The notes beneath the pieces are model-generated. The model did no database searches. It was given only the letters and a program-made list of their open reading frames with translations, and had not been told where the DNA came from. DNA of 64,000 bases, taken from the NCBI GenBank assembly GCA_009885745.1, contig VFKC01000042.1, positions 11,555 through 75,554 on the forward strand, given 5' to 3'. This document shows positions 12,046 through 64,000 of the stretch, piece after piece; position 1 is the stretch's first letter, and the number at the start of each line of letters is the position of its first letter. A program made the translations under genes and the position numbers. Source of the stretch: Actinomycetota bacterium. GTDB taxonomy: Bacteria; Actinomycetota; Actinomycetes; S36-B12; UBA5976.

Positions 12046-12075
12046 TTGCCAGATTGGCATAAACCCCGCGATAAT
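12046..12075 (+). promoter_or_regulatory. candidate sigma-70-type promoter TTGCCA-N18-GATAAT upstream of the giant gene
   Basis: Hexamers read directly. The -10 sits in the loop of an AAACCC/GGGTTT hairpin (12061-12082). No experimental support. Confidence 0.25.
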
Positions 12076-12143
12076 AGGGTTTAAGGTCCTGCAATCAGTT
12101 AGTCCACGCCAGTTTTTGTGTGAGTCAAAACAAAGGAAATATC

Positions 12144-15100
12144 ATGCAGATTTCACCCAAAGCCACTATCAGCACACTTTTAACTATTCTTTTGTTGATT
12201 TCAGGAGTTGCTATCCCAAACAGCGCCACAGCAAAGACAAATGTTGCCGATAGGGACCTAGCCGCAGAAGTAACAAGTGACGCGATTGTTACAGCGATTA
12301 CTCCAGAAGCTGGAAGTGGAATTGACAATATTTATATCAGTTGGGAATCTGAAGGTACTGACCCAATTTTTTCCGAAGAAGATCCGGATAGCGATCCTCT
12401 TCCATCTGCATATTTTGTCGTGACCGTTGAAGGTGGCGGCTTTGCCAAGTGTGATAGCTCGCTTCCAAATGTCGGTACACATGAAATGGCATTTGACGAG
12501 ACAGGTGACGTTACTTGTCGTGTTGGTGGCCTAGAACTTGATCGAACTGTCGCAATTACGGTGACACCTTTTATCGCTGCTCAAAATGAAGATGAAGTTG
12601 ATGCGATGGGGACATCATTTACGACGGAGTACACAGCCATAGAAGAACCTAATGCCCCAGCAGTCACTGCAACAGTTAGCTCCGCGCGAGAAAGAATCAC
12701 AATTAACTGGACCGCTGGCGCGAATTCTGATGCGGTGAACGGTTGGCGAGTAGATACAGGCGATTTAACCGTAGACGGGGCAGGCACTTGCACATTTTGG
12801 GATGAGAGTTTTGACGACGATACCCAAGAAACGATGTATACCGATACTGGCGAATCATTAGATCTAAACGAAAGTTCATGCTATATCCCGAATGATAACT
12901 ATGATTCTGAAGCGGCTTACGCAATTGTTGTAACACCCATTTACGGTGATTCATTTTTAGCCGGTCCCTTTGGAGCGACATTTATTGGCGCAAAAGCCTC
13001 GGCAACTCCGGGCTTTATCACTGATTTCAGTGTGGCTACCTCTGGCGCAAAAGCAGCAAAAGTTTCGTGGAAAATTCTGGGAATGGCTGGGGCACCCGCA
13101 CTTACCTCTCAAACTGTCAGTGCATTTGACCCGGAAGATACCAGCGATGAGCCTCAAGTATTGGATAAGTGTCTTTTACTTAAAACAACGGATCGTACCT
13201 GCACGCTTACCAAACTCGTTGCGGGCAAGAACTACTTAGTAATCGTGACTGCTGAGAACGAAAATGGGCCAATTGACAACACCGCTTATCCATGGAGTTT
13301 TTACACTCATCCGGTTCCGCCTGACGCACCAAAAGATTTTACCGCAACTGATTACGGAACTGAACTGGTATTCGATTGGAATCCAGGTTGGAATGGTGGC
13401 TCAGCCCTAACTAAATACACTTTGACCGAAGTTGGATCCAACACTCCTGTTTGTGGAACTATTCCTGGCACAGCCATATCTTGTGTGTTCAAGGGAACTA
13501 GTCTGACCAAATCCGAGTACAACTTTGAGTTGATTGCAACAAATGGGTCAAGCTTTAGCGAGCCAGTTACCACCGAGTTTTTCCCGGTATTTCCTGAAGC
13601 AGTATCTAACATTGCTGTTTCGATTACAGGCAAGACCACTGCGGATGTTGTGTGGACTTCAGCATTAGATGCAGCTTCGTATGAAGTGACAGTTAACGGC
13701 AAGGTCGTCGTATGTCCAGAGATTGAAGAGCCGGAGATTGAAGATGAGAGCCAACAAATAGATCCAGATCTTGAACCAGTTGAAGAGCCAATCTCAGACC
13801 AAAACATCTGCACTATTTCAGATTTAGTTTCCAAAAGGACCTACACAATTGGCGTGCAGTCTGTTCGCTGGAATGCCGAATCTGCGATTACCACGACTTC
13901 ATACGTTCACCCATCGGGTCCAACAGTTGGGGTTAGTGTTTATGAAATTGGCGCGAATGGTCGATCCGCAATACTCGAGACAATCGTTGTCAACGAAAAC
14001 AATAATCTTGCGACCTCTTACGTAATCACAACTCAAAATCTGGCCGATGATTCAGTTGTGGACACTCGGGATTGCCCAGAAACACTTTGTGTAATTGAGG
14101 GGCTTTTACCTGGTAACAAGTACAAGTTCTCCGTGGTTGCATCCAACATAGCTGGCTCTTCAACACCGCAGTCCGTCATCGCTACTATGCCAAGCGTGCC
14201 ATCATTTCCCGAAGCCGTTGAAGTACAGGCCACTGCCCCGAACACTGCTGAGGTAACTTGGGGCAAAGTGAAACGCGCTAATTCTTACCTAATTTCTGTG
14301 ACGAACAATGGGCAGACCCAAACTTTCAACACTCAGGAAAATTCAATCAGCATTGATGTGGAAAGCGCACAGACTTACTCAATTTCTGTCGCGGCGATTA
14401 ACGCCGTTGGTCAAGGTCCAGAATCAGCAACAATTAATTACACGCATCCACTTGCACCAGTTGCACCCACTGCAATCCGAGCATTTAGCGAGTCGCTTAC
14501 CTCGGCACTCGTAACTTGGACTGCGAGCAATTCAAAAAATGGTGGACCAGTTGATAGTTACTTGGTTCAGGCCTACTTTAATGGCGAGCTGGTTTCTAGT
14601 TGCCAACCAACAAAAGCGACAATATGTTTACTTCCCGGACTTGAGAGCCAAATCTATGACATTCGGGTTACCGCACAGAATGTCATCGGTACCAGCCCTA
14701 CAGCAAATTATTCATATCAGGCTCCTACTGCCCCTAGTGCGCCAATAGTGTCAGCCGAGGCTTTGAAAAATGATATGTGGAAATCAGCCAAGATTGCCTG
14801 GCGCGTCACTGAAACAGGTGGGCTGCCAATCAAATCGATAACTATCAGTGCCAAAAGCGGCCAAGAGAATGTCAGCATCTCAGGCTCTTGTAGCACTCTG
14901 GCTGTAATGGCATCCGATTGTGTTTTAACGGGTCTAACCGCCGGCAAGGAATATCAGGTAAGTGTGACTATCGCTAATAGCGCCGGCCGGACAACGTCGG
15001 AGACTTCGGTCAAAATCCCGGACACTCCAGCGCCAGTAACCAACATATTGGCAACTCAAACAGATGCAGACAGCGCAAACATCGTGTGGACAAAGTCTCA

Positions 15101-18100
15101 AAATGCTGAATCTTATTCGGTGAAGGTATTGGACATCGATGGTAAGGCAGTGAACTGCATCGGTGGAAATATCACCTACCAACCAACTTGTTTGCTGGAT
15201 GGACTTAACGGCGGTGAGGCGCATTCAATTTCAGTGATTGCTAACTCAAAGGGCATCGGCCAGAGCATTGAGGCGTTTTCTTCATACACTCAGCCAGTTA
15301 TTGTAAACCAATATCAGATTTCCGCCGAGGTCAATCCGGTTAATACCTCAATCCTCAATCTATATTTCACAGCCTTAGACTCAAGCGGTTCAAGTGTTCT
15401 TCCTAAGCCCAATGTGTTCGTGTATAAGATCGACGGAAGCACTAAGGAGCTCATTTGCACAACAACTTCCCTTGGTACCACATGTGAAATGCAGAACCCT
15501 CTCTCACCTGGTGACATTGTTGGAGGAACTTATACCATTGCCGCAAGAGGCATAAAGGCCAATGTTCAAAAAATCCGTGCTATCCGATCGGTAGTAGAGC
15601 CTCCAGCGGAAGATTCTGGTTCATTCAATATTTTGATTCCACTTCCAGCCACCGAGGTTACAAATCTAGATGTGGTTTCACTTTCTCCAACTTCAGCTCT
15701 GGCTTCTTGGGATTCAATTGAAGATACAAGTGTGACTTATGACGTCACAGTTGATGGAAACCTAGTTTGCGAAGACATCACCGAGGCAGAGTGTGAAATC
15801 GCTAACGAACCTGGTGCCCAGTCAGTGATAGTTTCAGTTACAGCGAAGAATCTAACGGGCGAATCAAGCCCCGTCACATTTGATTACGCTGCGCCAGAAA
15901 TGCCAAAGGAACCAACGGACATTGTTTTCGAGACTAATAGCTCGGGATCCATGTTGACCACTTGGTCCGATGAAGCAAATAGTGTCGCTACTACTTACTC
16001 CGTCAAGCTCGATGGTGAAATAATCAGTGAGTGCATCGACCTCGTAAATCCAGTCTGTCTTGTTTCCAATCTTGTGCCAGGTGGCCAGTACCAAATCACA
16101 GTAATCGCTAAGAATATTCTTGGATCCGCCGAAGCCAGCGCCGCACTGGTACAGCCGCTACCCGCAACTGCCCCAATCGTGCAAGCGGAGGTATCTGAAG
16201 ATGGAACTTCTATTCATTTCAGTTGGCTAATTCCTGATACTGGTGGGGCAAAACCTACTGATATCGAGATTCGACTTAACCCCAGCCAAGGAACAACCGG
16301 ATGTTCTGAAATTGACGTGGAAGCAAGTTCCTGCGATCTTGAGGGACTTGTTGCCGGCGTGAACTACACATTTGCTGTTCGCTTGGTCACCGAAGTTGGT
16401 GCAGGTTCATTTGGGTTTGCTTCTGCATCAGCTGGAGAATTACTGGAGTCTCCCGAGAATGTGTCTATTTCTCGGATTGGCGATAATCAGGCTTTCATTA
16501 CTTGGGACGGCTTAGAAAGTGCTGATAGTTACCAGGTTTATGTCAATGGGGAACTAAATGATGTTTGTTCAACTTCAGAAACAAGTTGCACAATTGACAT
16601 CGATGCCACCGAGCCTCTAACAGTAATGGTCTCAGGTGTGAATAGATTCAGTACCAGCGGACTAGCAAAATCTGCCTTAGCGGGGCGCACAGTCATTGGA
16701 CCCAAGCGGGTGGTAGCAGTTTCGAGTGCTGATGGTCGTTCCGTGCTCTTAAGTTGGAAAGCAGACCTAACGACAGCGTCCCAAGAAGTTGAATACGCAG
16801 CTGCAACAGGCATTGCTGGGTGTAGCGATTTAGCGGCATCAACTAGTTCATGCACAATTACTGGCTTAACCCCCGGCACTTCATACTCATTCGTGCTTCG
16901 CACTTATGATGCGGATTCTGTGCTTAATGAATCCGAAGTTATTGCCAACACAAAGGTGCTTCCAACACCTAAGGCTGCTTCGGGATTGGCTGTCGCACTG
17001 GTTAAGAAAGTTGCGACACTAACTTGGGTTTCTTCAGTTGCTCAGATTACAAACAAGGCAGCGCTACCAACATATAGCGTGACACTAAATGGCAAGGCTG
17101 TTAAGTGCAAGATTGAGGCAGCAACGCCATCATGTGCTCTCGGCAAACTTGCGGGCACAGCCAAATATTCGGCAAAGGTCACGGCCAAACTCGGCACAAA
17201 ATCTGCTGTATCGAAAGAGTTCAAGTTCACCGCAAAGTCCGTTGCTAAGGTCGGATTCTTAACTTCGAAGCTGACTACAAGTGGCGCAACTCTTACTTGG
17301 CAGGACCTTCCAAAGATGAAGGCAAGTGCAATTACGGTGGCAGTTTCGCCAAAGGCAACTGGTTGCAAACCAGTGGTTGCCACTGCCAAGAATTGTGCCC
17401 TAACTGGATTGGTCCCTGGAACTTCATACACAGCCACAGTGACTATCAAACATAAGAAGGGTGCGGCAACGAAGATTGTCCGCAACTTTGTCGCTCCCCC
17501 AGCACTATCGGCACCTGCGGATCTTGATGTGCAACTAACCGGTGACAACCAAGCTCGTGTTTGGATCACTCCAGGCTTCGATTCAGTCGGAAGTAGCTAT
17601 GTGTGTTCAGCAACTAACAAAGCACTCACCATTACATTTGATGCGACAACTACCAGTTGCTTGATTTCTAACATCTATTCGGCAACTGTTGCTGATGTTT
17701 CAGTTTATGCAAAGAACGGTGCAAGCAAGAGTTCGCCAAGTTCCGTTACTTGGAAAGCTCCTACAGCGCCTAGAGCAGTTACTGATTTAGAAGCAAACAT
17801 TAAATCAGGATTTGTCACCGTGTCTTGGCTACCAAGCACTAGTGGCAACCAGAACATTACTGGCTACCGGATTACTTCAGCGAAATCTGCTTCGGTTGTT
17901 GTTGATGCAACTACCTTCAGCCGAAAGATTGCTGTTACTGGGGTAACTCCTGGATCTGATGTGACCTTCATCGTGGTGGCATTGAGTCAAGTTGGTGATG
18001 GTACCACTGCAAATGTGATTGCCACGGCACTTGCCCTACCATCCACTGTAGATTCAGACACTATTTTAGGTGACTGGACTAGTGCTTCTTCGGCCACAAT

Positions 18101-18338
18101 TTCTTGGCAGAGCGTTGAATCTAATGCTGACTATGAAGTAAGTATTTCAAGTACCGGTAGTAGCACTACGAAGGCTTGCGAGACTCATGCAACAGCATGT
18201 TTGCTAACCGAGTTGTCGAAGAATAAGGACTATACGATCACAGTGACCGCAATCAATGCAGCGGGATCCACTACTAGTGCCACAGTCATCTGGCATCAAG
18301 GTGCCTCCAATGATGATTCAGAGCTAACGGCTCCATAG
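12144..18338 (+). CDS. giant secreted/surface protein of about 21 tandem fibronectin-type-III-like repeats
   Basis: 6.2-kb ORF. ATG 12144 has an AAAGGA SD and a Sec-type signal (MQISPKATISTLLTILLLISGVAIPNSATA). Roughly 90-100-aa repeats each carry a W early and a Y-x-[IFV]-x-V-x-A-x-N-x-x-G-like tyrosine-corner motif late. The ORF-track start GTG 12120 is less likely. Confidence 0.85.
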   Translation: MQISPKATISTLLTILLLISGVAIPNSATAKTNVADRDLAAEVTSDAIVTAITPEAGSGIDNIYISWESEGTDPIFSEEDPDSDPLPSAYFVVTVEGGGFAKCDSSLPNVGTHEMAFDETGDVTCRVGGLELDRTVAITVTPFIAAQNEDEVDAMGTSFTTEYTAIEEPNAPAVTATVSSARERITINWTAGANSDAVNGWRVDTGDLTVDGAGTCTFWDESFDDDTQETMYTDTGESLDLNESSCYIPNDNYDSEAAYAIVVTPIYGDSFLAGPFGATFIGAKASATPGFITDFSVATSGAKAAKVSWKILGMAGAPALTSQTVSAFDPEDTSDEPQVLDKCLLLKTTDRTCTLTKLVAGKNYLVIVTAENENGPIDNTAYPWSFYTHPVPPDAPKDFTATDYGTELVFDWNPGWNGGSALTKYTLTEVGSNTPVCGTIPGTAISCVFKGTSLTKSEYNFELIATNGSSFSEPVTTEFFPVFPEAVSNIAVSITGKTTADVVWTSALDAASYEVTVNGKVVVCPEIEEPEIEDESQQIDPDLEPVEEPISDQNICTISDLVSKRTYTIGVQSVRWNAESAITTTSYVHPSGPTVGVSVYEIGANGRSAILETIVVNENNNLATSYVITTQNLADDSVVDTRDCPETLCVIEGLLPGNKYKFSVVASNIAGSSTPQSVIATMPSVPSFPEAVEVQATAPNTAEVTWGKVKRANSYLISVTNNGQTQTFNTQENSISIDVESAQTYSISVAAINAVGQGPESATINYTHPLAPVAPTAIRAFSESLTSALVTWTASNSKNGGPVDSYLVQAYFNGELVSSCQPTKATICLLPGLESQIYDIRVTAQNVIGTSPTANYSYQAPTAPSAPIVSAEALKNDMWKSAKIAWRVTETGGLPIKSITISAKSGQENVSISGSCSTLAVMASDCVLTGLTAGKEYQVSVTIANSAGRTTSETSVKIPDTPAPVTNILATQTDADSANIVWTKSQNAESYSVKVLDIDGKAVNCIGGNITYQPTCLLDGLNGGEAHSISVIANSKGIGQSIEAFSSYTQPVIVNQYQISAEVNPVNTSILNLYFTALDSSGSSVLPKPNVFVYKIDGSTKELICTTTSLGTTCEMQNPLSPGDIVGGTYTIAARGIKANVQKIRAIRSVVEPPAEDSGSFNILIPLPATEVTNLDVVSLSPTSALASWDSIEDTSVTYDVTVDGNLVCEDITEAECEIANEPGAQSVIVSVTAKNLTGESSPVTFDYAAPEMPKEPTDIVFETNSSGSMLTTWSDEANSVATTYSVKLDGEIISECIDLVNPVCLVSNLVPGGQYQITVIAKNILGSAEASAALVQPLPATAPIVQAEVSEDGTSIHFSWLIPDTGGAKPTDIEIRLNPSQGTTGCSEIDVEASSCDLEGLVAGVNYTFAVRLVTEVGAGSFGFASASAGELLESPENVSISRIGDNQAFITWDGLESADSYQVYVNGELNDVCSTSETSCTIDIDATEPLTVMVSGVNRFSTSGLAKSALAGRTVIGPKRVVAVSSADGRSVLLSWKADLTTASQEVEYAAATGIAGCSDLAASTSSCTITGLTPGTSYSFVLRTYDADSVLNESEVIANTKVLPTPKAASGLAVALVKKVATLTWVSSVAQITNKAALPTYSVTLNGKAVKCKIEAATPSCALGKLAGTAKYSAKVTAKLGTKSAVSKEFKFTAKSVAKVGFLTSKLTTSGATLTWQDLPKMKASAITVAVSPKATGCKPVVATAKNCALTGLVPGTSYTATVTIKHKKGAATKIVRNFVAPPALSAPADLDVQLTGDNQARVWITPGFDSVGSSYVCSATNKALTITFDATTTSCLISNIYSATVADVSVYAKNGASKSSPSSVTWKAPTAPRAVTDLEANIKSGFVTVSWLPSTSGNQNITGYRITSAKSASVVVDATTFSRKIAVTGVTPGSDVTFIVVALSQVGDGTTANVIATALALPSTVDSDTILGDWTSASSATISWQSVESNADYEVSISSTGSSTTKACETHATACLLTELSKNKDYTITVTAINAAGSTTSATVIWHQGASNDDSELTAP

Positions 18339-18355
18339 TCAGTGACTCAAAATAG

Positions 18356-18402
18356 ATGGTGGGTCTGAGGGAAATCCTTAGGCCCACCATTTTGATTTTT
18401 TT
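18356..18402. terminator. bidirectional rho-independent terminator between the giant gene (+) and the LuxR gene (-)
   Basis: 15-bp stem atggtgggtctgagg / ccttaggcccaccat (two G-U pairs), 5-nt loop, then TTTGATTTTTTT. There is an A-rich run on the other side. Confidence 0.85.
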
Positions 18403-22523: not shown

Positions 22524-23495
22524 ATGCAGGCACCGACGCGCACAAACATTGCTGGTCATCATGACTTAGTAAAACCAGTAATGAATCTCGGACCCACACT
22601 AATTCTGCCGGTGATTCTATTTTCTTTTGCTACTCAAACGACAGCTTTTTCACAGAAGATACCCGCATGGACTATTACATTCGCTGTGATTGCGTTGGCA
22701 CTAGGCACTCCACATGGAGCTGTCGATGACTTAGTACTCGCTAAGAAAACTCCAGCAACCACCTTGCTCAAATTGGCAATTATCTACACCTCTATTGCAG
22801 CTCTGTCAGCAAGCGCAATCTTATGGAAACCGGCAACTATGTTTCTTGGCGTTTTAGTAATGACTATCTGGCACTTTGGTACTGGTGACGTTCAAGCGGC
22901 TTCAGAATTACTTGGTCTAAAAGTAAGCAGTGGATTCAGATACTGGATACATGTGCTTGCTGCAGGCAGTGTCCCAGTGTTGTTGCCGCTAACCTCTCCA
23001 GCCGCAATTTCAACCCTACGTAGTATCCAGCCGAAATTAGCCCAGTCTTTTTCTTCGTATGCAACTAACAATGTTCGAATGGTTGTCCTTCTGATCGCCT
23101 TTGTGTCGCTAGTTTTTCACCTCCTTGGAAACAACATCAGAGGAGCAATCGAACTGAGCACTTTGATTGCGCTCGGCCTTGTGGTCGCTCCATTGCTAGC
23201 CTTTGCTACTTACTTCACTTTTTGGCACGCCACTAGACACACAGCCAGACTTGCATTTAGTGCGCATGGCCAAGTGACACGATTGTCAATGTCCAAGGTA
23301 TTCATCCACGGTTTACCCGCTTTAATGGCAATCAGTGCAGTCTTGATCTGGCTCCTGACAAGGGACTCCTTACTCTCATCAATTCACCAATGGCTTTGGC
23401 TAGGTCTGGCAATCACCTGGGGATTGACAGTGCCACACATGATTGCTGTTGCATACTTTGATCGTTCTTCACGAAAAGGGCTGAGGCGCTCATGA
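22524..23495 (+). CDS. blh: beta-carotene 15,15'-dioxygenase, Brp/Blh family (retinal synthase)
   Basis: Polytopic membrane protein carrying the family His motifs GTPHGAVD, IWHFGTGD, FWHATRH (H-x3-H) and TVPHMIAV. Start is uncertain; an in-frame ATG at 22581 is possible. Confidence 0.85.
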   Translation: MQAPTRTNIAGHHDLVKPVMNLGPTLILPVILFSFATQTTAFSQKIPAWTITFAVIALALGTPHGAVDDLVLAKKTPATTLLKLAIIYTSIAALSASAILWKPATMFLGVLVMTIWHFGTGDVQAASELLGLKVSSGFRYWIHVLAAGSVPVLLPLTSPAAISTLRSIQPKLAQSFSSYATNNVRMVVLLIAFVSLVFHLLGNNIRGAIELSTLIALGLVVAPLLAFATYFTFWHATRHTARLAFSAHGQVTRLSMSKVFIHGLPALMAISAVLIWLLTRDSLLSSIHQWLWLGLAITWGLTVPHMIAVAYFDRSSRKGLRRS

Positions 23496-49896: not shown

Positions 49897-51900
49897 CTAA
49901 CGCATGGTTAGGGAACCATAGCCGTTGTACTTGGAGTAACGAATCCAGTCCACCTTCATTGAAGTGGTTTGCAGGCTCGATGGAATCGGACCACTGAAAT
50001 TGGGATTCATCGCCACATTCAAGATCAAGAACATTTCTTTATTGAACTGCCAGCAACTAGCACAAGACACATCGCTCTTTCGTACTTCAACTTTTTTAAC
50101 ACCATCGAAGGTCCAGCGAATGTAATCGGGCTCCCACTCAATTCCATATGTGTGGAAATCATCAGCCAATGAGGTTGTATGGGTAATGGTATTTAAATCC
50201 GGTTTTTGCGCATGACTTAGGCCGCCACAATATGGCATGCACGCCGAAGTCGGTGAATGGGCAGTCATCCAGAGCACATTTGGATTTCCACCGCTGGCTT
50301 CCATGATGTCTATTTCGCCAGTGCCAGGCCATGGATTTTGATCGATGTCTTGACCAAGCATCCAAAACGCGGGAAACGCACCAGAGCCCGCGGGGACTTT
50401 TATGCGTGCTTCAATCTTTCCGTATTTGAAACTCACTCGGTCTTTGGTTAACAACTTTCCGGATGTCCAAGCGCAAGCATTTCCTGAGGAACAGGTGTAA
50501 CTGCTCGCCCCAGCTCTCTTTGCTGTCATCACCAGATTGCCTAATCCATCTAGGGCATTATTTTCTGCTTGATAGCTGATGTAATCTCCGCCAGCGATAC
50601 CGCACAATCTCGGACAACCATTGCCTAGACCTGGTTCCCACTGACTTGAATTATTCGCGCTCGCACTAAATGCACTCGCAGTTTCATTAAACTCCGCGCA
50701 CCATAGATAGCCGATGGCGCAACTTGGACGGGCAGCACCTGTTGGTATTGGCTTATGGAACTGAAAGTCGATGAGGTCAACGGCTTCACTTGGCTGGCCA
50801 AGTATTGAAGGCATGACTTGGCTGAATATTCGCGAATCAGCCGAGTTGTTTTCAAATTTATCGGTGTAATTTCCAACCTGATTGGCTGTATTTGTATTTG
50901 TAATCGTGAATGAAACATTGCCATTAACATCTGTTGTTCCGCTTAATAAACCACCATTTTGGCTTATTGCAACTGGAGTAATTGTGGCTCCAGTAGCAGG
51001 CACGAAGAACGATGCATTGGAACTGCTGTACTGCTTATTGACCGCTAATCGGACAACTTTATTAACCAGCGGCAAGCCAACCTGATCTGTCGCGTGATAA
51101 GTCAAAGTCAAAGTAGCACCTACGGCAACTTCGTGCGTTAGGTACTTTAACCCACTTGCAAACCAACCCTGATTAACAAAATGGGTAGCTGAGCCTTCTT
51201 GCACCATTGAATTAGAGAAATCAACCAACGGGGCAATCAATCGAATATTTGCGAAGGTAAGTGGCTGCTGGATACCTGGCGCAGTTGGAGTGGAATTTGA
51301 AATCACAAATGATTTGCTGATGTTCTTAGCGATTTTGACCTCGGAGTTACCCGGGTTCGATGCAGTAAGTCTGCAAGTTCCCTTGGCGAGCGCCCGCACC
51401 TTATTTAAAATAACGCGGCAGATTGTTGGAGTGGTGCTGTAGATTCTTGTTTCTCCACCTGATGCACTGACCAATAAGACTTGATCTTGATCATTCACCT
51501 TCATCGCCGTTGGCGATGTGAAAGTAATTACATTCACTAACGCGGTAGAAACCCCTGACTTAATCGCAACAATTCCGTTGCCTACCGCATTTACAGCTCG
51601 AGTAGAAATGCTGTATGTGCGGCCATTTACTAGACCAGTTAAAACAATTGGGCTCTGTGCGCTTGTTAACCAAGTACTTCCAGCATCTGTTGAGTACTCA
51701 ACCCGTAAAATTTCAGAACCGTTTGATGCCCCCAGCATGTAGGGAAATGACAATTGCGCGCTGCGTGTCTTGTCAACAGTTAATAAAATCAACTTACTCG
51801 GCACTTTAGGTGCACTAGCAGAAATTGCCACTCCACTCGTCTGGCTAAAAATTACGCCAAAGGCAAGTGCCATTACGACTATGCGCATCTTAAAGTTCAT
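49897..51900 (-). CDS. secreted multidomain glycoside hydrolase family 16 (laminarinase-like beta-glucanase) with N-terminal Fn3/Ig-like modules
   Basis: C-terminal GH16 signature FPAFWMLG...WPGTGEIDIMEA (E-x-D-x-x-E). Upstream Fn3-like and Ig-like segments. Signal peptide MNFKMRIVVMALAFGVIFSQTSGVAISA from ATG 51900; the ORF-track start is 51963. Confidence 0.85.
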   Translation of the reverse strand: MNFKMRIVVMALAFGVIFSQTSGVAISASAPKVPSKLILLTVDKTRSAQLSFPYMLGASNGSEILRVEYSTDAGSTWLTSAQSPIVLTGLVNGRTYSISTRAVNAVGNGIVAIKSGVSTALVNVITFTSPTAMKVNDQDQVLLVSASGGETRIYSTTPTICRVILNKVRALAKGTCRLTASNPGNSEVKIAKNISKSFVISNSTPTAPGIQQPLTFANIRLIAPLVDFSNSMVQEGSATHFVNQGWFASGLKYLTHEVAVGATLTLTYHATDQVGLPLVNKVVRLAVNKQYSSSNASFFVPATGATITPVAISQNGGLLSGTTDVNGNVSFTITNTNTANQVGNYTDKFENNSADSRIFSQVMPSILGQPSEAVDLIDFQFHKPIPTGAARPSCAIGYLWCAEFNETASAFSASANNSSQWEPGLGNGCPRLCGIAGGDYISYQAENNALDGLGNLVMTAKRAGASSYTCSSGNACAWTSGKLLTKDRVSFKYGKIEARIKVPAGSGAFPAFWMLGQDIDQNPWPGTGEIDIMEASGGNPNVLWMTAHSPTSACMPYCGGLSHAQKPDLNTITHTTSLADDFHTYGIEWEPDYIRWTFDGVKKVEVRKSDVSCASCWQFNKEMFLILNVAMNPNFSGPIPSSLQTTSMKVDWIRYSKYNGYGSLTMR

Positions 51901-51970
51901 AAATCCACTATGCCCTAGTGTTAGCGATCTGGGAATCTTTGCAAAACTTCGAATTCTTAGCACTTAGCCG

Positions 51971-63346: not shown

Positions 63347-64000
63347 TCATGGGGATGTCTCCAACGAGACGCCCCAGAAAGTCAGCAGGGGGTTGATACC
63401 GACGTAAAAAAACTGGTCGGCGCACAGAACACCAGGGACGGCCAAACTAGGACATGAAACTGTCCAACCACTAGCGAATCCAGAAATGATCCCCTTGGCG
63501 CGAACACGACCATCGGCGTTATATCCGTAAACAGGACCACCGCTGTCACCTTGAGCGATAGCAATGTCTTGATTGGATGAAGTGGCGACACTTCCGTAGC
63601 AGTCAAACCCTGTCACGGGACAACCGAAGAGTGCTTGAGAGTCTGTCACGGTCAGCCCGCAGTGTTCCCCCGAATTTGCTCCAGATGTACACACTGAGTT
63701 GCCGACGACAGTCGCAGATGGGGCAGCCACGCTTAATTTGTAATGCGGATGAGCACTGGTGGCATACCATGGACCGCCATGCACTTTGCCTTGTGTGCCA
63801 TTTGTAGGATCTATCAATAGTGATTCCCAATCGTGCTGTCGAACTTGAACAAATGCAGCGCCGTTAGTCAGCTGCACAGACCCAACGCCGTTGGACCACG
63901 CGGCGTTTCCTGACAAGTCACAATGAGCGGCAGACAACAAACGCCCGGCACTACCACTAAGCACCGCGAATCCGGTTGAGCAATAGCCTGAGGTTTCAGA
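63347..64000 (-). CDS. chymotrypsin-fold serine protease, streptogrisin/alpha-lytic (S1E) type; 5' end lies outside the window
   Basis: The frame is open to the window edge (SETSGYCSTGFAVLSGSAGRLLSAAHC). Catalytic His in AAHC and Ser in GDSGGPVY. Paired Cys are typical of S1E. Confidence 0.85.
   Translation of the reverse strand, partial: SETSGYCSTGFAVLSGSAGRLLSAAHCDLSGNAAWSNGVGSVQLTNGAAFVQVRQHDWESLLIDPTNGTQGKVHGGPWYATSAHPHYKLSVAAPSATVVGNSVCTSGANSGEHCGLTVTDSQALFGCPVTGFDCYGSVATSSNQDIAIAQGDSGGPVYGYNADGRVRAKGIISGFASGWTVSCPSLAVPGVLCADQFFYVGINPLLTFWGVSLETSP

Follow-up and report, generated by a model that had tools for sequence, protein, structure and literature searches.

In the 64-kb window analyzed in this work (the whole stretch of 64,000 nucleotides from contig VFKC01000042.1 of an Actinomycetota bacterium), one giant gene occupies positions 12144..18338 of the forward strand. 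It is an intact single open reading frame (ORF) of 2064 codons, uninterrupted from its ATG at 12144, with an in-frame GTG eight codons upstream (12120). The product is a 21-domain fibronectin type III (Fn3)-like protein, and this structural description is well supported by sequence comparison and structure models. Judged from alignments, it belongs to a small family from freshwater actinobacteria in which the 21 domains are conserved one for one. The Pfam family fn3 (PF00041) matched 15 stretches of the protein (E = 6e-93; 305.6 bits against a cut-off of 25), and a hidden Markov model (HMM) iterated on the protein itself found 17 strong domains of 73-100 residues each. Four divergent segments, namely N1 (residues 48-175), N2 (176-295), D4, and X11 (1057-1175), bring the total to 21. 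The initial annotation had described one 6.2-kb ORF coding for 2064 aa, read as a secreted rod of about 21 Cys-paired Fn3-like repeats. The gene, the count (by HMM and structure models), and the structural reading (by Pfam, models, and fold search) are all borne out, and every motif that it quoted is present. The features of the gene are as follows.

12046..12075 (+): promoter-like site TTGCCA-18-GATAAT, with 10/12 consensus matches; a consensus match only
12132..12139 (+): Shine-Dalgarno-like sequence AAAGGAAA, read directly from the DNA; it ends 4 nt before the ATG, and its AAGGA core lies 6 nt before the ATG
12144..12233 (+): predicted signal peptide, residues 1-30, the sole hydrophobic segment; predicted cleavage after ATA
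12285..13028 (+): N1-N2, residues 48-295, insert-bearing Fn3-like domains, each with a Cys pair, forming an acidic head (charge, AlphaFold, Foldseek)
13029..13613 (+): D3-D4, residues 296-490, flavor-B Fn3 domains (HMM, profile comparison), present together with N1-N2 in a 660-aa short form
13614..15311 (+): D5-D10, residues 491-1056, acidic spacer Fn3 domains, D7 without Cys (HMM), missing from the short form P0010
15312..15668 (+): X11, residues 1057-1175, putative degenerate Fn3-like beta domain with a Cys pair, then a low-confidence linker
15669..16985 (+): D12-D16, residues 1176-1614, acidic spacer Fn3 domains (HMM, charge, D12 model)
16986..17522 (+): D17-D18, residues 1615-1793, Lys-rich basic Fn3 pair, a candidate wall-binding or self-association module
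17523..18302 (+): D19-D21, residues 1794-2053, near-neutral C-terminal Fn3 domains, D20 without Cys (HMM, charge)
18303..18338 (+): acidic tail of 11 residues, GASNDDSELTAP, then the stop codon; the tail lacks a sorting motif
18354..18402 (+): intrinsic terminator with an 18-bp stem and then a T run, just past the stop codon

Domain architecture and cysteine pairs

By HMM, the domains are fn3 and not BIg, and the structure models point in the same direction. The AlphaFold model of N1-N2 is all-beta with a predicted local distance difference test (pLDDT) score of 64, and that of D10-X11-D12 is also all-beta (pLDDT 66), with means over 10-residue blocks of 76-94 in D12. In these models, both D10 and D12 have the seven strands (A, B, C, C', E, F, and G) of an Fn3 beta-sandwich. 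The best Foldseek matches in the PDB were tandem FnIII structures in both cases, such as neogenin FN5-6, the insulin receptor, and LepR CRH2 for N1-N2 and contactin FN1-3, titin A84-A86, and fibronectin 10-12 for D10-X11-D12. A single-domain profile likewise matched titin and fibronectin FnIII domains in the PDB. Among the hallmark residues of the fold, the Trp of strand B is nearly invariant and the Tyr-x-hydrophobic-x-hydrophobic motif of strand F occurs in most domains. The linkers are short and rich in Pro (11.9%, compared with 5.2% protein-wide). X11 has no Pfam match and was modeled poorly, as a low-confidence all-beta segment, and we regard it with moderate confidence as a degenerate Fn3-like domain. 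A Pfam scan of N1-N2 alone gave nothing meaningful, and an NCBIfam scan of the whole protein found no family. A PDB sequence search with the whole protein returned no match at E <= 1e-5, and the N-terminal region gave only matches at chance level.

The protein has 38 Cys, which form 19 intradomain pairs; D7 and D20 are without Cys. The initial annotation reported two Cys 7-12 residues apart in most repeats. The pairing holds for 19 of the 21 domains, but the spacing spans 5-32 residues, and 14 of the 19 pairs fall in the 7-12 range. In the modeled domains, strand C' holds the first Cys of the pair and strand E the second, which immediately precedes the (L/I)xGL turn. In D10, these are model residues 46 and 57 (strands 46-48 and 56-60), and in D12, residues 250 and 258 (strands 247-253 and 257-261). 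The E-strand Cys is the sole invariant column across 15 aligned domains. Furthermore, all 38 Cys align in the orthologs at 70% (P0002) and 36% (P0009) identity, for which the chance probabilities are ~1e-6 and ~1e-17, respectively, and the Cys-less domains of P0009 are the same two as in the window protein. Ordinary bacterial multi-Fn3 proteins from the same search have 0 Cys per Fn3 domain, and the Cys pair does not align in the best-matching solved FnIII domains with alignments shown.

Aerobic Actinobacteria have a bias toward even Cys numbers and form disulfides in Sec-exported proteins (PMC2823432). The window protein combines a Sec signal with Cys that are even in number, conserved, and close together in the fold, as is expected of a disulfide substrate. 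Based on the invariant C'/E pairs and this actinobacterial even-Cys rule (PMC2823432), the oxidation of the Cys pairs to disulfides is a well-founded inference. The previously suggested disulfide-stapled fiber is confirmed as far as its Fn3 beads and their invariant Cys pairs are concerned, and the stapling itself is the putative part.

Two flavors of domain were found when per-domain profiles from three orthologs were compared all against all with hhalign. Flavor A comprises D5, D7, D8, D10, D12, D13, D15, D17, D19, and D21, and flavor B comprises D3, D4, D6, D9, D14, D16, D18, and D20. The order along the protein, BBABAABA[X11]AABABABABA, contains 13/17 alternations (permutation p = 0.035). 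The two alternating flavors proposed initially are real in profile-profile scores, but alternation is strict only from D13 to D21, and D8, which carries a GG-x-P-like motif, groups with flavor A. Raw pairwise identity between domains gave no i/i+2 signal.

Relatives, selection, and genomic context

Relatives of the protein were sought with a word-index search over 5.8 billion clusters and with a HMMER search of the N1-N2 head against 1.84 billion representatives. The word-index search returned the identical NCBI protein and one 70%-identical ENA protein of 2080 aa (P0002), the remainder being generic Fn3 similarity. P0002 is located on a syntenic contig (L001), adjoins the same decarboxylase gene (88% identical), and aligns with the window protein from end to end, with domains one-to-one and the 38 Cys kept. 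The HMMER search added only three further 50%-identity clusters, namely P0009, P0010, and a fragment. P0009 has 2045 aa and comes from lake metagenomes (including ENA ERZ19026232, GROS21), in which 14 contigs, the longest of 429 kb, carry it; it is ~36% identical overall (22-47% per domain) and collinear domain for domain. P0010 is a short form of 660 aa in which best-match assignment gives the signal peptide followed by N1-N2-D3-D4-D17-D18. Overall, about five clusters at 90% identity represent the family in a total of roughly 15 billion proteins. No relatives were found in JGI metagenome contigs by alignment scans with the full-length protein and with D17-D18, and our literature search on Fn3 giants in Nanopelagicales and on metaproteomic evidence found nothing on this family.

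A partial copy is present in the MAG (metagenome-assembled genome) Ja1_bin-3476 (L002, CAIVPQ010000092.1; 2.1 kb), in which the decarboxylase and the first 270 codons of the giant gene are each 92% identical to those of the window. The contig end falls inside the giant gene (L002 1-812), and MAG assemblies may break at this locus. Among 80 decarboxylase loci from GTDB species representatives, none besides L002 has an adjoining Fn3 giant. Synteny around the decarboxylase is lost beyond the closest relatives.

The number of repeats is the same across the long forms, as both P0002 and P0009 are collinear domain for domain with the window protein. From these alignments, the repeat array appears to be a fixed, orthologous domain-by-domain architecture and not a plastic repeat expansion. 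There is next to no probability that the ORF is an assembly artifact with collapsed or expanded repeats or a decaying gene. One MAG contig ends within the giant gene, as described above, which could be taken to favor such an origin. However, pairwise identity between domains is 6-34%, and no tandem or dispersed DNA repeat of more than 21 nt exists in the gene; these two observations rule out repeat collapse or expansion. Moreover, independent assemblies yielded the collinear 2080-aa and 2045-aa proteins, the latter on 14 contigs, and the substitution pattern of the gene is that of a maintained protein (dN/dS about 0.13).

Between the window and L001, the giant gene has a nonsynonymous divergence (dN) of 0.19 and a synonymous divergence (dS) of 1.47, which is near saturation, and the dN/dS of the decarboxylase is about 0.04. 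With the closer L002, dN/dS was 0.040/0.27 for the first 270 codons of the giant gene and 0.046/0.41 for the decarboxylase. The giant protein is under purifying selection that is more relaxed than that on the housekeeping enzyme, and overall there is no sign of an arms race. X11 is the fastest-evolving domain (dN/dS 0.47) and is 22% identical to its counterpart in P0009.

A separate observation concerns codons about 960-1230 (window about 15021-15834), which cover D10, X11, and the start of D12. Third-position identity to L001 is 60-77% in this block and mostly 25-57% elsewhere in the gene, with one 67% stretch near codons 632-691. In the same block, dS is 0.53-0.55 and dN/dS 0.27-0.47, compared with about 0.1 elsewhere, and the amino-acid identity of X11 is the lowest in the protein. 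This anomaly at D10-X11 may reflect recombination of the block, rapid change in X11, or constraint at the nucleotide level.

Variation within the clusters is localized. Between the short-form variants P0010 and P0022, residues 1-454 contain 53 of the 54 differences, and the basic pair has only one (p = 2e-8). Between the long-form variants P0009 and P0019, 29 of the 34 differences fall in the spacer, residues 565-1331 (p = 1e-8). Based on these differences in the short and long forms, the family combines a head that is acidic and variable, a spacer that tolerates change, and a cationic pair under tight constraint.

With a promoter-like site, a Shine-Dalgarno sequence, and a strong terminator of its own, the giant gene appears to be transcribed as a separate unit. 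On one side it diverges from a gene for an Orn/Lys/Arg decarboxylase, with which it has in common a 137-nt intergenic region containing the promoter-like site, and on the other it is convergent with a LuxR-type gene. The genes upstream are for sulfite reductase and PAPS reductase, followed by siroheme and heme synthesis. Those downstream include NDH-2, blh, dnaG, glyS, uppS, recO, era, dnaJ/hrcA, lepA, comEC, and leuS. The surroundings are core chromosome, with a G+C content of ~47% across the window and no compositional break at the giant gene. The best matches of the decarboxylase are freshwater actinobacterial MAGs, several of which are labelled Nanopelagicales.

Several other genes in the window and near its relatives deserve mention. 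The sulfite and PAPS reductase genes (224-2625) would serve assimilatory sulfate reduction, and blh (22524-23495) encodes a Blh beta-carotene dioxygenase of retinal synthesis. Typical acI Nanopelagicales are not known to assimilate sulfate, and given these genes the host may belong to an atypical lineage. A 688-aa protein (49897-51963, reverse strand; pI 9.0, 12 Cys) has a signal-like hydrophobic segment at its N-terminus, a C-terminal GH16 domain, and a weak Fn3-like domain without a Cys pair. Near the window end (63347-63964, reverse strand), a 205-aa ORF with seven Cys contains the GDSGGP motif typical of chymotrypsin-like serine proteases. This ORF has no Pfam match at E <= 1e-5, and its listed GTG start may be internal to a longer gene.

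The context of the giant gene differs among its relatives. In L001, unrelated genes occupy the place of the downstream LuxR gene of the window, and P0009 and P0010 are found in other contexts. Neighbors differ between L001, L082 (the contig of P0009), and the P0010 contig, and no conserved partner, secretion, or anchoring gene was found among them. Two genes downstream of the ortholog in L001, an ORF of collagen-like G-X-Y repeats (ATGPKGDTGATGPKGDTG...) runs to the contig end (17106-18104, reverse strand); the window has no equivalent. A type I restriction-modification set (HsdM, HsdS, and HsdR-like) and a GmrSD-family gene are located ~3.6 kb from the P0009 gene in L082 (1-6393), with two genes between. 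This suggests that the genome neighborhood of P0009 is variable and rich in defense genes.

Export and proposed retention on the cell

The N-terminus of the protein consists of MQISPK, an 18-residue hydrophobic core, and PNSATA, with cleavage predicted before the following K. The Pro-preceded AXA site is kept in five relatives (including P0002, P0009, P0010, and P0011), although their hydrophobic cores (h-regions) differ. This conservation of AXA and Pro, without that of the hydrophobic core, argues for cleavage of the signal peptide and supports the Sec signal with cleavage after SATA that had been suggested for this gene.

A scan of the protein found no hydrophobic segment besides the signal peptide and no LPXTG followed by a hydrophobic tail. 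LPATA-like strings are present only internally, and the acidic C-terminal tail has a similar counterpart in P0002 and a dissimilar one in P0009. The absence of an LPXTG motif, a hydrophobic tail, or another sorting motif agrees with the initial annotation. In the window, no sortase gene was found among the ORFs of at least 150 aa. Several candidate routes of export or attachment can be rejected. A sortase substrate is ruled out by the missing C-terminal LPXTG-type motif, hydrophobic segment, and basic tail, a lipoprotein by the lack of a lipobox Cys, and Tat export by the lack of a twin-arginine motif. A giant RTX or BIg adhesin of a type I secretion system (LapA, SiiE, or MpIBP type) is ruled out by the N-terminal Sec signal and the fn3 domains; furthermore, the nearby ABC-2 genes are not conserved beside the orthologs. 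An autotransporter-like C-terminal beta-barrel is excluded as well, since the protein ends 11 residues after D21.

Charge is distributed unevenly along the protein. The mature protein has an isoelectric point (pI) of 4.4, and the computed per-domain charges give a net -38 for N1-N2. D17-D18 has 25 Lys and four Asp/Glu, a net charge of +22, and a pI of 10.2 (Lys enrichment, Fisher p = 1e-8). P0002 and P0009 have this basic block in the matching position, and in the short form P0010 the block makes up the C-terminus. D17 and D18 are 80% and 78% identical to those of P0002, among the three best conserved domains (D4 is 81% identical), and 44% and 47% identical to those of P0009, in which they are the two best conserved. 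Because the protein lacks a sortase motif, a second hydrophobic segment, a lipobox, and a wall-binding module, the cationic pair is the best candidate for retention, as a putative non-covalent wall-binding module. The initial annotation had left attachment unexplained; no known anchor was found, but the conserved Lys-rich pair now narrows the problem to a concrete candidate.

Based on these patterns, we propose an oxidatively folded rod whose basic pair attaches it non-covalently to anionic wall polymers and which displays its acidic head, and we assign this reading a probability of roughly 45%. After Sec export and cleavage of the signal peptide, the extracytoplasmic oxidoreductase system of Actinobacteria, an MdbA/DsbA-like protein plus VKOR, would oxidize each pair, giving 19 C'-E disulfides that close the exposed C'-E loop and harden every bead against unfolding and proteolysis. 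An Fn3 domain is ~3.5 nm long, and 21 such domains would add up to a stiff rod with a length of about 70-80 nm. It would be polar, with four N-terminal domains forming a strongly acidic, more variable head and D5-D16 forming the spacer. The Lys-rich D17-D18 would dock electrostatically on anionic cell-wall glycopolymers without a covalent anchor and thereby project the acidic N1-D4 head outward. The protein may serve as a stand-off coat or an adhesive fibril on a very small planktonic cell, and the 6-domain and 21-domain members would differ mainly in reach. The roles suggested initially, namely adhesion, a shield against grazing or phages, and polymer capture, are all candidates on these data. 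The GH16, GT4, and DUF4012 genes next to P0010 count in favor of this proposal of a wall-docked rod.

Several points weigh against a wall-docked, oxidized rod. We infer the bonded state of the Cys pairs from sequence and models, and retention on the cell from charge conservation and analogy. Among the ORFs of the window there is no gene for DsbA, MdbA, or VKOR, and no teichoic-acid or LCP gene was found there. In the protein, scans for SLH, LysM, GW, choline-binding, or other wall-binding modules gave no Pfam or NCBIfam match even at E <= 1. A word-index search with the D17-D18 alignment scored 0/8000 candidates, K/T/A-rich words probably swamping the list. In the long forms, three more domains come after the basic pair, an unusual position for a terminal anchor, and D17-D18 could instead bind the acidic head of a neighboring molecule or an external polyanion.

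These last two possibilities correspond to different readings of the same protein. In an S-layer-like or mesh coat, molecules would self-assemble through contacts between the acidic head (-38) of one and the basic pair (+22) of its neighbor. We consider this unlikely, although it has some merit. N1-N2 and D17-D18 carry complementary charges and both persist in the short form, most of the protein is acidic, no covalent anchor is present, and S-layer proteins attach and assemble non-covalently with a high-pI wall-binding part (PMC3666127). Nevertheless, 21 beads on a string would be an atypical lattice subunit, no SLH or other S-layer module was found in the protein, and very high expression is not in evidence. 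The family is also very rare, having turned up in just a few freshwater-actinobacterial assemblies, and the decarboxylase loci of relatives at 43-63% identity have no adjoining giant, though synteny is lost at that distance. Surface structures of freshwater Actinobacteria are reportedly linked to grazing resistance, according to the title of a 2009 paper by Tarao and colleagues cited in PMC3666127 and PMC12817590, which would fit a coat of this kind.

A released extracellular fiber or matrix protein, whose basic pair binds an external polyanion (algal or humic polymers, or other cells), seems less probable still. It would explain why the protein has a Sec signal and a conserved cleavage site but lacks a recognizable anchor, and the GH16 enzyme genes in the window and beside the short form hint at polysaccharide-related exoproteins. 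However, dilution would carry a 220-kDa protein away from a planktonic cell, one with a small genome, and the conserved length and polarity better suit a cell-attached spacer. Moreover, conservation is much stronger in the basic pair than in the head, which is what binding to a component of the cell itself would predict. The remaining reading reverses the orientation: an uncleaved N-terminal signal-anchor would hold the chain, which extends C-terminus first with the basic pair and D19-D21 distal. The long h-region of about 18 residues, as the sole hydrophobic segment, is compatible with such an anchor, but conservation of Pro and AXA (-3/-1) in five relatives while the h-region varies is the pattern of a cleaved signal, and the N-terminal head is kept in the short form like a functional module. 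We find this quite improbable.

Planktonic freshwater Actinobacteria are among the most abundant lake bacteria, and their resistance to grazing and phages has been attributed to poorly known surface structures, for which this family offers a concrete, expressible protein candidate. If the basic pair binds the wall, it would be a new type of module by which surface proteins of Gram-positive bacteria are anchored non-covalently, and if the disulfides are confirmed, the beads would be a natural template for stabilized Fn3 scaffolds. As a more speculative extension that we regard as doubtful, ~75-nm spacers of fixed length may form a brush on ultra-small freshwater Actinobacteria and keep phage adsorption or flagellate ingestion at a distance. 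The short and long forms would then represent different coat thicknesses, and X11, which is fast-evolving with signs of a separate history, might be a selected interaction site. On the other hand, a multi-Fn3 bacterial surface protein is of a familiar kind, and the rarity of the family means that its ecological weight may be small.

Comparison with known systems

Bacterial multi-Fn3 surface proteins (P0004-P0008) resemble the window protein in having long PF00041 arrays behind an N-terminal signal, an S/T/A-rich composition, and a presumed surface location. In these arrays, however, the Fn3 domains are Cys-less, and the protein ends with a recognizable extra module (a transmembrane tail, SLH repeats, or some other domain). 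In the window protein, 19 of the 21 domains have a Cys pair, a terminal module is lacking, the order of the 21 domains is fixed and orthologous, and a basic pair is embedded in the array. Judged from sequence, it differs from the class in its Cys pairs, its titin-like orthologous order, the lack of a recognized anchor, and a cationic pair that comes with a natural 'mini' form. The only distant match with the two-Cys type is the 3390-aa metagenomic protein P0003 (L084 6001-16173), in which 21 of the 24 detected Fn3 domains are of this type (23% identity over 75% of the query). P0003 differs in its ~430 extra C-terminal residues ending in Phe, its near-identical internal repeats (by eye), and its genomic context. 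Pfam gives only fn3 in its C-terminal 547 aa, and by sequence this region looks like an outer-membrane beta-barrel.

Titin provides an analogy in organization. Its A-band FnIII domains are the best PDB matches of the domain profile (8q6t and 8g4l) and of the three-domain model (8bnq), and its domains also follow a patterned order of flavors. In titin, each domain position is conserved between orthologs rather than between neighbors. However, titin is an intracellular protein of eukaryotes that lacks a signal peptide and, in the best matches shown, an aligned Cys pair; it includes Ig domains and binds myosin, and the resemblance is limited to fold and organization.

Precedents for the proposed docking come from two sources. 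In Lactobacillus S-layer proteins, binding to teichoic acids or other anionic wall polymers has been proposed for a high-pI region that is distinct from the more variable exposed one (PMC3666127). This non-covalent attachment of SlpA and CbsA is a precedent for the docking proposed here, but these proteins are unrelated in sequence and fold, have 40-60 kDa, and form lattices as demonstrated, whereas the basic module of the window protein is an Fn3 pair whose wall binding is putative. Fibronectin FnIII 12-14 (1fnh and 3r8q) was among the fold matches of the D10-X11-D12 model. In this heparin-binding segment, basic FnIII domains bind a polyanionic glycan via a cationic surface; it is eukaryotic and alike in fold only, and binding by D17-D18 is putative.

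For the Cys pairs, class I cytokine receptors, with LepR CRH2 among the fold matches of N1-N2, offer a parallel. Their Fn3 domains have disulfides between neighboring strands, including a C'-E bond. Unlike these receptors, the window protein has no WSXWS motif and no similarity at E <= 1e-5, and it carries one Cys pair per domain, not two.

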